Part shown: one piece after another, positions 23,801 to 26,800 of the stretch
How positions within the stretch are numbered: position 1 is the stretch's first letter
Layout: each line of letters begins with the position of its first letter
Assembly: GCA_963693365.1 (NCBI GenBank)
Contig: CAVNZM010000008.1
Location: 3,625,572 to 3,689,571 of the forward strand
From: Amoebidium appalachense
Taxonomy: Eukaryota; Protista; Ichthyosporea
Length of the DNA: 64,000 bases
Direction of reading: 5' to 3'
Notes under the pieces: model-generated
The model's input: only the letters and a program-made list of their open reading frames with translations
Databases searched by the model: none
Told to the model about the DNA's origin: nothing
Position numbers and translations under genes: made by a program

Positions 23801-26800
23801 GCTACGATGCCCAACCAATCACGACGCAGGGGCGGGAGCGTACCAGACCAATCAGCAAACGACAGTTTTGCCTATCCGCCCCGCCCCCCACTACCTACTC
23901 CCGGGAATTGTCAATCGCAATGGCACGAATCGCCGCAGCCGAACGCGAATAATCAGGGCTTGCCGGGGCCTGGGAGTGATGGAAGTATGAATATGTCACA
24001 GGATATGTATATAGAAAGCAGGGAGGGAGCCTCAGCGCCCGTTGACCCGTATGCCATTAGGCCGTACAGACGGGGGGATGAGATTGTGGACAATAGCAGG
24101 TGGGTGCGCAAGTGTGTGCGTGTGTGGGCGGGGGGGGGGGGGGGGGGGGGGGGGTTGTAGGTGTGCGTGCGTGTGCGTGGACGGGTGGTGGGCTGGCGGG
24201 CTGGCAGGTGGGCGGGTGGGGACATGTGTTTACACGCATGGGCACACTTGTTCATGGAGAATATTGATGCATGCTTTATGTGTACCCCCACGGCCATGCA
24301 TGAGCAAGCAATGACTCCTGTTCAAAACACATTCAAGCAGCCGTAACATGCAAATGAGGGCATGTGGCAAATTGGGGAACACACGCACACACGTGTGCAC
24401 ACACACATACATACACACCTGCACATACTCACACTCACACACTCACACTTGGAAACACTTACACCTACATCTAAAACACAGACACACTTGCATACACTAA
24501 ACACTCCCTTTCTCACACGTGCATGCACGCACGCGCGCGCACACACACACACACACACAAACACAAACACAGGGGCCATGGATACGTTGATCCCGATTTG
24601 GTTGCTGCAGCTGCAAAGGCTGAAATGGCCAGCCGTCAAAGGTCGTCCCCCCCCCCCCCCCCCCCCCCAATGCAACCGGGCATGGTTGCTCTGTGTCTTG
24701 CATCTGTAAGCACATACGCGTTTGTCGCTCCACTGCATTAGTTTGCACACACATTTTCACCGTTTTGCTCACCTTGCTTGCATAAGCAACCCTGCTCGTC
24801 TTTGATCAAGACGGGTTGACCCACCCAAGTTCAGTTGATGCTGCTGTCTGAGTTGGAGCGTCGTATATACGCGGGCTAAGGGGTCGAAACTCAGACGCAA
24901 TTGATGACTTGGGCCCTCCCTGAGGATGGGCTCTGCTTATGACGCATACTGTGCGTATGGCTGATGCTGCATACTTGAATGTTTGCCTTTGCATGTATCC
25001 TGCACCATGCTTCTCATCGTCTATGCGTACTTCGTACTGTGTTCCGCATTCAAACCCCCCCTGTCTTCTTTCAGAGGTGTCCTTTCAGGACAGACCACTG
25101 TGTGGAGACATCTTTACTTCCATGCAACCGGGCATGGTTGCTCTGTGTCTTGCATCTGTAAGCACATACGCGTTTGTCGCTGCACTGCATTAGTTTGCAC
25201 ACACATCTTCACCGTTTTGCTCACCTTGCTTGCATAAGCAACCCTGCTCGTCTTTGATCAAGACGGGTTGACCCACCCAAGTTCAGTTGATGCTGCTGTC
25301 TGAGTTGGAGCGTCGTATATACGCGGGCTAAGGGGTCGAAACTCAGACGCAATTGATGACTTGGGCCCTCCCTGAGGATGGGCTCTGCTTATGACGCATC
25401 TGTGCGCACGGCTGATGCTGCATACTTGAATGTTTGCCTTTGCATGTATCCTGCACCATGCTTCTCATCGCCTATGCGTACTTGGTACTGTGTTCCGCAT
25501 TCAAGCCCCCCCCCCCCCCCCCCCCCCCCCCCCCCCCCCAGCTCACCCCCCCTTCCACCCCTGGTTCTTGTTATTACCCTTTCCCCCTTCCCCCCCCCCC
25601 CCCCCCCCTCCCCTCCCTGCACCTTTTATTTAACTGCTCCCCCTTACCCCCTCCCCCCAATTTCTTACCATACCCTCCTTTAAAAGATAAGTGTGAAGGG
25701 GCTCGTGTAAGAGAACGAAATCCTCCCCCCCCCCCCCCCCCTCCCTCCCTCCTCCCCTTCCCCACCCTCCCACCCTCCCCCCTTGTCTCTCCCCATCCTC
25801 CCTCCCCCAACCACACAGATCAAACCCATCTACACCTACATCTTTCTCATGCCTTATTTCCTACCTCCACGTATCTCCATTTGTGCGTTTTTCCTGTTAC
25901 TTTTTTTTTTTTTTTTTTTTTTTTTTAGGGGGGGGGCTCCCTTTCTCTAACACAATGACATGGGCCCCCAATGATGACGGGCTCTGCCTATTATGCATAC
26001 CCATGTGTGTGCGGTTTGCATTCTGCATTGTTTTGTCCATAATGAATGCGTGTTTCGTACTATAAAAACATATTCTAACCCTCTCCCCTCCCCCCCCCCC
26101 CCCCCCTTCCCCTCCCCCCCCCTTCCCCTCCCCTCCCCCCCCCCCCCTTCCCCTCCCCCCCCCCCCCCCCCCCAAAAAAAAAAAAAAACACCCAAACAGA
26201 GCATTACAGGATTCACAGTCCACATCCACCCCCACACCTCCCCTCCATCCACCTGCCCGCCCGCCCGTACCCATTCCCGGTGCCTCTGCCCCTCCCGCCA
26301 TCCCCCCTGGTCCGTCCCTCCGTATGCAACGTCTGTCTTCAAGCCCTACCTCTTCCGAACTTACGCGTGTCTACCAACCCCCACCGTTTCCATATTCGGG
26401 TTGGTAACCCCCCCCGCCTCCCCCCTCCCCTGGGAAGCATGCACACGTAAACAAACACATTTGTGTCCGTCCATTTGTGGGTACAGGGGCGCATCTCTTA
26501 TGCACACGCACACACACGTGCACTGGCACTCTACAGGATGCACACACACGAGCGGGCACATGTGCGCAGAAAAACACCCACTCACTCACGCACACACACT
26601 CACACTCTCACACACCCACCTACTGACTCACTCACCCACCCACACACACACACACACACACACACACACACATATTAACCCCGAGCCGTTCACCCGGAAG
26701 CCAAAATCGACCAGATTTGAAAAAATATAGAACATTAAAGGCGGCCCAAGTGGACCAAAACGCTACAAACACATGTGCATATGTCTTTCTTTGTGTACCT

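Follow-up and report, generated by a model that had tools for sequence, protein, structure and literature searches.

A 452-bp non-coding element that targets poly-C tracts carries a candidate split hammerhead motif and occurs in greater-than-unit-length copies

We analysed a 64,000-nt stretch of DNA (the window), which is eukaryotic DNA with abundant (CA)n and C/G runs. The results support that its 452-bp repeat is a non-autonomous, poly-C-targeting element with greater-than-unit copies. On the strength of its letters and stems, a motif within the unit is very probably hammerhead-derived, and this candidate hammerhead is rather likely to cut in some context.

The initial annotation had listed at least eight copies, and an nhmmer profile search at E<0.01 brought the number to 10 loci. 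The profile was built from seven stretches of seven of these loci, and the three loci outside it were recovered at E 8.8e-10, 2.8e-8 and 0.0054. The three head-to-tail partial tandems described earlier were found again, with lengths of 1.17, 1.86 and 1.53 units (6961-7490, 24670-25510 and 45404-46095 on the minus strand). The largest copy in the window thus measures 1.86 units, and no insertion exceeds two. As previously remarked, there was no convincing ORF, the longest ATG frame at the 1.86-unit copy being 84 aa. The copies have no poly-A or simple tail, and none of the 10 loci has a 30-40 bp tail or an adjacent inverted copy. The loci and the landmarks around the longest copy are listed below.

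6961..7490, plus strand: locus A, 1.17 units, with GCAA in place of GAAA at 7319-7322
9850..9890, plus strand: locus J, old 3' remnant ahead of a long C-tract (nhmmer E 0.0054)
10869..11011, plus strand: locus B, young copy, 5'-truncated, between C-runs
13622..13829, plus strand: locus C, diverged (subfamily B) copy spanning the candidate hammerhead
14047..14175, plus strand: locus E, old 3' fragment (nhmmer E 8.8e-10)
14298..14440, plus strand: locus D, diverged, 5'-truncated
24647..24668, plus strand: C22 located 5' of locus F, target tract
24670..25510, plus strand: locus F, 1.86-unit head-to-tail copy of the young subfamily
25055..25061, plus strand: internal C7, the unit junction and end point of all copies; putative priming site
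25059..25510, plus strand: one 452-bp unit, 51.5% GC, non-coding
25506..25539, plus strand: C34 located 3' of locus F, target tract
25954..26081, plus strand: locus G, diverged copy with the core word AUGAUGA (C3 lost)
45404..46095, minus strand: locus H, 1.53 units, repeats identical (0/230)
63620..63775, minus strand: locus I, old copy

Two smaller features were also observed. A 24-nt remnant at 9553-9576 (plus strand; E 7.9) follows a C-rich tract and has CUGAUGA directly 5' of GGGCUC without the extra U. A perfect tandem duplication with a 63-bp period occupies 46256-46384, 160 bp upstream of locus H.

The fixed 3' end at poly-C that had been proposed was seen in every copy, since 10/10 stop at the unit's C7 (25055-25061) and enter C-rich tracts. 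With the C-runs at the 10 ends counted by eye, an unbroken run of at least eight C lay within 15 nt of the 3' end at 8/10 loci, compared with 2.8% of strand positions (binomial 2e-11). The 5' ends are variable; half of them (5/10) gather on either side of the long stem, at unit positions 211-212 and 284-297, and none (0/10) falls at the predicted cut site. Six of the 10 loci have a 5' end that abuts a C-run, which agrees with the initial remark that several do. The copies inside the large gene had been noted earlier as all sense. Runs of at least 10 C between 5.5 and 35 kb number 69 on the plus strand and 21 on the minus strand, and 8/8 sense copies then have P=0.12. The bias follows the strand of the C-run targets, and we therefore rejected it as a sign of function and gave it no weight as evidence.

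We then considered independent sequencing runs. Contigs carrying the element numbered 9,672 and 7,681 in two DNA runs, and the head-to-tail junction and the C-run ends were found in contigs of all four independent runs, from three studies. The initial annotation had named assembly chimerism at poly-C as a refuting outcome; the recurrence of the junctions in independent short-read runs indicates that they are not chimeras. The repeat is almost certainly a real and very abundant mobile element. Among the runs listed as carrying it, none is on record as RNA. Two runs guessed to be RNA carry it, one contig spanning the unit junction, but the flanking intron is uncovered even in a DNA run; there is hence no control, and the run data are not taken as evidence of expression or of circles. 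Subfamily B is relatively deeper in run X18 than in run X1. Among run contigs aligned to 25058-25512, a second subfamily has a shorter unit of about 270 nt; it joins at 25224 after its own A + C-run junction and is missing ~165 nt from the start and ~31 nt from the 3' part. One contig of run X18 over 13671-13747 (depth 1380) has the 3' strand of the outer helix swapped for C-rich letters, and possibly represents a third variant. Searches of metagenome and viral contigs returned no relative of the element, and 232 loci from such contigs gave no BLAST hit.

The initial annotation had been unable to fit a hammerhead core to the unit. Our results showed that the core words GUU, CGAAA and CUGAGGA and stems I to III are all present, in S-G-C order. 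Stems I, II and III adjoin the core with 4, 5 and 9 pairs, respectively, when stem II is taken from the upstream strand. Among the stems listed earlier, the long stem and GGGCCC/GGGCTC turned out to be parts of this candidate hammerhead, and the small 5' hairpins were rejected as evidence of function. Its parts are as follows.

25270..25379, plus strand: candidate split, non-circularly permuted hammerhead in the downstream unit of locus F
25270-74/25333-37, plus strand: stem II of the candidate hammerhead
25276-82/25359-65, plus strand: outer helix P4
25297-305/25341-49, plus strand: stem III
25304-06, plus strand: GUU, with the predicted cut after 25306
25307-10/25368-71, plus strand: stem I
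25314-23, plus strand: palindromic linker
25338-41, plus strand: GAAA (CGAAA at 25337-41)
25372-78, plus strand: CUGAGGA (CUGAGGA-U-G at 25372-80)
24818..24927, plus strand: the same candidate hammerhead in the upstream repeat of locus F, with the predicted cut after 24854
Locus H: intact candidate hammerhead in the downstream unit, predicted cut 45608; the upstream one is cut off at stem II

A descriptor covering six block orders was run over the 64 kb on both strands. Its only matches were four units of the element, all in S-G-C order, and no circularly permuted hammerhead was found in the window with it; shuffled sequences matched 23, 2 and 0 times in 20,000 at rising strictness. The split layout was matched by three units in the window against 2/30,000 shuffles, with a descriptor that was written after the element had been seen. 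As a negative control, we used 234 unrelated sites from metagenome or viral contigs without a relative of the element, chosen beforehand because they carry both core words, and two of them had minimal stems. The comparison with Rfam ribozymes that the initial annotation had suggested gave no match at the gathering score in the 64 kb and none of relevance at E<=5 around the locus. By eye, no fit was obtained to the layouts of HDV-like, twister, pistol or hairpin ribozymes. The fold of the whole unit is modestly better than that of shuffles (z -1.82; 5/100 as good), and the minimum-energy folds, from a program without pseudoknots, leave the ribozyme core unformed.

Conservation was assessed between the two subfamilies. 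In copy C, the core letters are identical at 17/17 positions and the rest at 137/186 (74%, P 0.006), a test that leans on an alignment anchored by the core words themselves. Pairs broken in copy C are restored in the majority of subfamily B (13691, 98%; 13719, 99.5%; 13696, 99% of run X1 depth). Double-sided changes between the subfamilies occur at stem I pair 3 (A-U/G-C), stem III pair 8 (G-C/A-U) and P4 pair 5 (A-U/U-G); these three were read by hand, and two subfamilies amount to two events at best. The palindromic 10-mer of the linker also differs between them. The preservation of core letters and helices across subfamilies that are 74% alike indicates that the motif is under some selection. 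The covariation check that had been called for gave no significant signal on the window's own copies, as 87/500 shuffles scored as high; this alignment has 10 rows (9 distinct), with one diverged copy spanning the motif, and masks the stem I change behind a gap. Other diverged copies show changes at N7 and at the extra letter after A9, with loss of C3 as well in copy G. Locus A has lost A13 (GAAA to GCAA), and its hammerhead is predicted to be dead.

Repeats were also compared inside each locus. They differ at 0/69 columns in locus A, 0/230 in locus H and 7/380 in locus F, and repeats from different young loci differ by 1.7-10%. Three letters of locus F, at 25150, 25448 and 25472, are nearly private to it: both repeats carry them, and 95-99.8% of run X1 depth shows other letters there. 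The matching repeats within each locus indicate that every insertion arose by repeated copying of a single template sequence, and they fit a circle, a template jump or a transcript made from a tandem whose repeats were already uniform. Loci F and H run across the predicted cut two times, and 0/10 5' ends lie there, which points to a re-ligated circle or an uncut multimer as template and not to a cut linear monomer; such a lack of 5' ends at the cut would be expected where cut linear monomers do not serve as template.

We propose that the element is a non-autonomous Penelope-like retrozyme whose self-cut 452-nt monomers would be circularised and copied more than once round. Taken whole, this mechanism is an even proposition; mobilisation by Penelope-type machinery is strongly favoured, and a circular template is plausible and slightly favoured. 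The origin suggested initially, among retrozymes, Penelope-like elements (PLEs) and Helitron-type elements, is thereby narrowed to the Penelope-like and retrozyme side, the Helitron end motif being absent. In sequence and pairing, the parts of the candidate hammerhead follow one another as stem II-a, P4-a, cleavage block, GAAA block, P4-b and stem I'-CUGAGGA, with the A9/G10.1 link open and the other 343 nt filling the gap in a tandem or circle. Tandem transcripts would be cut after GUU (25306) and then re-ligated. The GIY-YIG/RT protein of an autonomous Chlamys/Naiad-type element may nick a poly-C tract in its G-strand, and the end of the G-run would prime at the C7 of the RNA; the RT would then run a variable distance and could pass both the junction and the cut site as many as two times. 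The fixed end is situated 199 nt 3' of the predicted cut, which would make priming internal. Internal RT initiation has been shown for the anole PLE, whose priming needed no target homology. No autonomous GIY-YIG/RT partner was seen within the 64-kb window.

The same insertions could be explained without a circle if a Penelope-type poly-C element used an uncut linear tandem transcript as template, or if the RT jumped back on the same RNA; the hammerhead would then be slow, protein-dependent or used at another step. In the anole PLE, the one system tested, insertion drew predominantly on uncut RNA, and hammerhead mutants still inserted normally. Partial tandems are general to PLEs, including those reported without canonical hammerheads, a tandem source locus would likewise yield matching repeats, and the predicted folds hide the hammerhead core. 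Against this explanation stand the core letters and helices kept across the subfamilies, the lack of insertions above two units in the window and the need for a linear source that is itself a near-dimer; we regard it as possible, at about one chance in three. A SINE-like passenger of a LINE priming on G-runs would show the fixed 3' end and variable 5' truncation seen here, and a frame at 40523-41008 (minus strand) holds a word that we take to be from LINE reverse transcriptases. This frame matched nothing in Pfam, the protein collection or PDB, and the copies lack poly-A or any simple tail. Partial tandems in head-to-tail order are characteristic of PLEs, as is internal priming, and the hammerhead layout is that of Naiad PLEs, all of which make the passenger reading very improbable. 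Helitrons can form partial tandems and homopolymers are error-prone, so that a Helitron-type DNA rolling circle, an ordinary satellite or a poly-C assembly chimera might be considered. The 3' end of Helitrons is CTRR, and no CTRR was present in the last 30 nt of the three young copies tested (3/3); a satellite does not accord with dispersed copies of at most 1.86 units, nor a chimera with junctions and C-run ends that recur across runs. These readings are largely refuted and retain hardly any credibility.

The remaining alternative concerns stem II. Passages of Eckert 2023 (PMC10085705) assume that stem II directly follows CUGAnGA. Read as an ordinary type-SGC hammerhead, the element would take stem II from the letters after CUGAGGA-U, and the GACCC strand with the outer helix would be an off-switch. 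Both CUGAnGA-U-G and the S-G-C order match the type as those passages give it, and 6/7 pairs can be drawn (-5.4 kcal/mol). However, with A9 joined directly (0-2 nt) to stem II, the helix has two pairs before a G-G mismatch, whereas 25270-74, the upstream strand, forms a perfect helix with the letters 5' of GAAA (-9.3 kcal/mol, flanks included), and the linkers exceed the 0-8 and 0-15 nt published in the same passages. In the Naiad passages considered below, the letters after CUGANGA are unable to pair and the upstream 6-bp strand always does. The ordinary type-SGC reading is accordingly an improbable one. Stem II appears best formed by the upstream strand, so that block C, assumed unbreakable in those passages of Eckert 2023, appears split. 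For a helix joining the flanks of block C, there were weak candidates only (-2.9 kcal/mol; 5/6 pairs). The GACCC strand and the outer helix as inhibitors were dropped after the comparison with Naiad 3' ends.

The split layout may require two units. Two of the Naiad passages have stem III continuous with the outer helix as a single long stem, and with links of 1-2 nt we estimate that it could not fold as a monomer, from which we infer a dimer. By analogy, the base of one unit (stem II-a and CUGAGGA) may dock on the GUU and GAAA loop of the next, and dimeric working of PLE hammerheads is stated in passages of a review. Melting in the middle of the element's stem could also allow a monomer fold. 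A bolder extension combines these points: a four-strand hammerhead with its catalytic strand uncoupled from stem II would be active only base-on-loop, so that only greater-than-unit RNA is cut; it would be the hidden ribozyme of the Naiad/Chlamys branch and drive a circular-RNA retrozyme that primes telomerase-style on poly-G via C7. We consider this extension unlikely as a whole.

Several genes and frames accompany the element. A large multi-exon gene at about 9000-33100 (plus strand) has proline-rich and tyrosine-motif exons and a coiled-coil end, with no family or homologue found. Long intronless frames at 35642-37735 (minus), 46975-49125 (minus) and 57470-58801 (plus) each have a similar single N-terminal C2H2 finger, with a weak Pfam match for two and none for 35642-37735. 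An intronless endonuclease/exonuclease/phosphatase gene lies at 1804-2634 (minus), its closest proteins being 34-36% identical. The frame at 40523-41008 (minus) is decayed and adjoins an 89-bp inverted repeat (39829-39915/40237-40325).

If the candidate hammerhead cuts, a genomic element of very high abundance would carry a topology outside the six block orders of Eckert 2023, and the reported absence of hammerheads in Penelope-like elements with an N-terminal EN would be explained. A 110-nt construct makes testable the role of PLE hammerheads and whether partial tandems arise from circles or from linear templates. A rule of C7 priming on poly-G would tie an endonuclease-type element to telomerase-like priming.

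Among known systems, the closest ribozyme layout was found in Naiad PLEs. Eight published Naiad 3' ends (five independent) share the split layout by eye in passages of supplement S5 of PMC8557442; these are returns of a word search among 54 Naiad records and comprise Naiad_Bfor, three near-identical Acropora, two near-identical Octopus and two unnamed passages, names being inferred from the next header. Their order is upstream 6-bp stem II strand, 1-2 nt, outer helix, stem III, UH, stem I, linker, stem II', GAAA, stem III', outer helix', 1-2 nt, stem I' and CUGANGA, stem I of Naiad_Bfor having two pairs only. Three more Naiad passages have an unsplit C-S-G form, and no split layout was seen in the incomplete set of Chlamys passages returned by word search. 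In the parts of Craig 2021 (PMC8557442) consulted, the Naiad clade is reported without canonical hammerheads, and the 3' motifs are listed only as HHR_core or half_core words, or not at all. Naiad PLEs, as these passages present them, are autonomous, animal and (TA)n-targeted or untargeted, whereas the element is non-autonomous and targets poly-C; its linker is a palindromic hairpin, compared with 3-5 nt in Naiads.

In its insertion habit, the element resembles Chlamys PLEs, for which passages of PMC8557442 describe 5' truncation, partial tandems, (C)n targets and non-autonomous head-to-tail families such as MRC1. A (C)n target is given there in 13/49 rows of the Chlamys sheet and 0/54 Naiad rows, and 7/8 of the (C)n-family ends examined finish in A + C-run, as the element does. 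With the non-autonomous (C)n Chlamys families of these passages, it shares 5' truncation, partial tandems, the (C)n target, the A + C-run end and the lack of coding capacity; the 30-40 bp tail or adjacent inverted copy is optional in the PLEs described there. In contrast to Chlamys PLEs, reported in the same source mostly without hammerheads, the element carries a hammerhead-like motif, and its unit is only 452 bp, unlike Chlamys PLEs such as MRC1.

Type-SGC hammerheads (HRIMA-1; Eckert 2023, passages of PMC10085705) have in common with the element the S-G-C order, found in four of its units, all core letters and the extra U after CUGAnGA. They come from metatranscriptome RNAs, whereas the element is a genomic retroelement of a eukaryote in which block C appears split, stem II comes from upstream, the linkers are longer and N7 is G. 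The descriptor published in these passages specifies CUGAUGA(U)G, stem II with at least two pairs beyond G10.1-C11.1, and linkers of 0-8 and 0-15 nt; by hand comparison, the element departs from it with N7=G, one further pair and linkers of about 21 and 18 nt. Non-LTR retrozymes, according to passages of PMC7229834, have a non-coding tandem unit of 150-450 bp with one hammerhead each, and PLE mobilisation has been proposed for them (PMC7229834; bioRxiv 10.64898/2026.07.22.740005, in part). The element shares the non-coding tandem unit of about 450 bp, 452 bp being the upper edge, and one hammerhead per unit. It differs from the retrozymes of these passages in a hammerhead that is not type I, in its GC content of 51.5%, and in dispersed sub-dimer copies within poly-C, many of them intronic, where non-LTR retrozymes form arrays. 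As it fits neither the type I retrozyme nor the published SGC descriptor, we file it as a variant and as a member of neither.

In open-licence PMC and bioRxiv literature, we found no description of a permuted or split hammerhead in a retroelement, and the term "type-SGC" appeared in one paper only. These comparisons suggest that what is new here is the combination of a putative Naiad-type ribozyme layout with Chlamys-type poly-C targeting, in two subfamilies and with a layout rule that predicts specific mutants.
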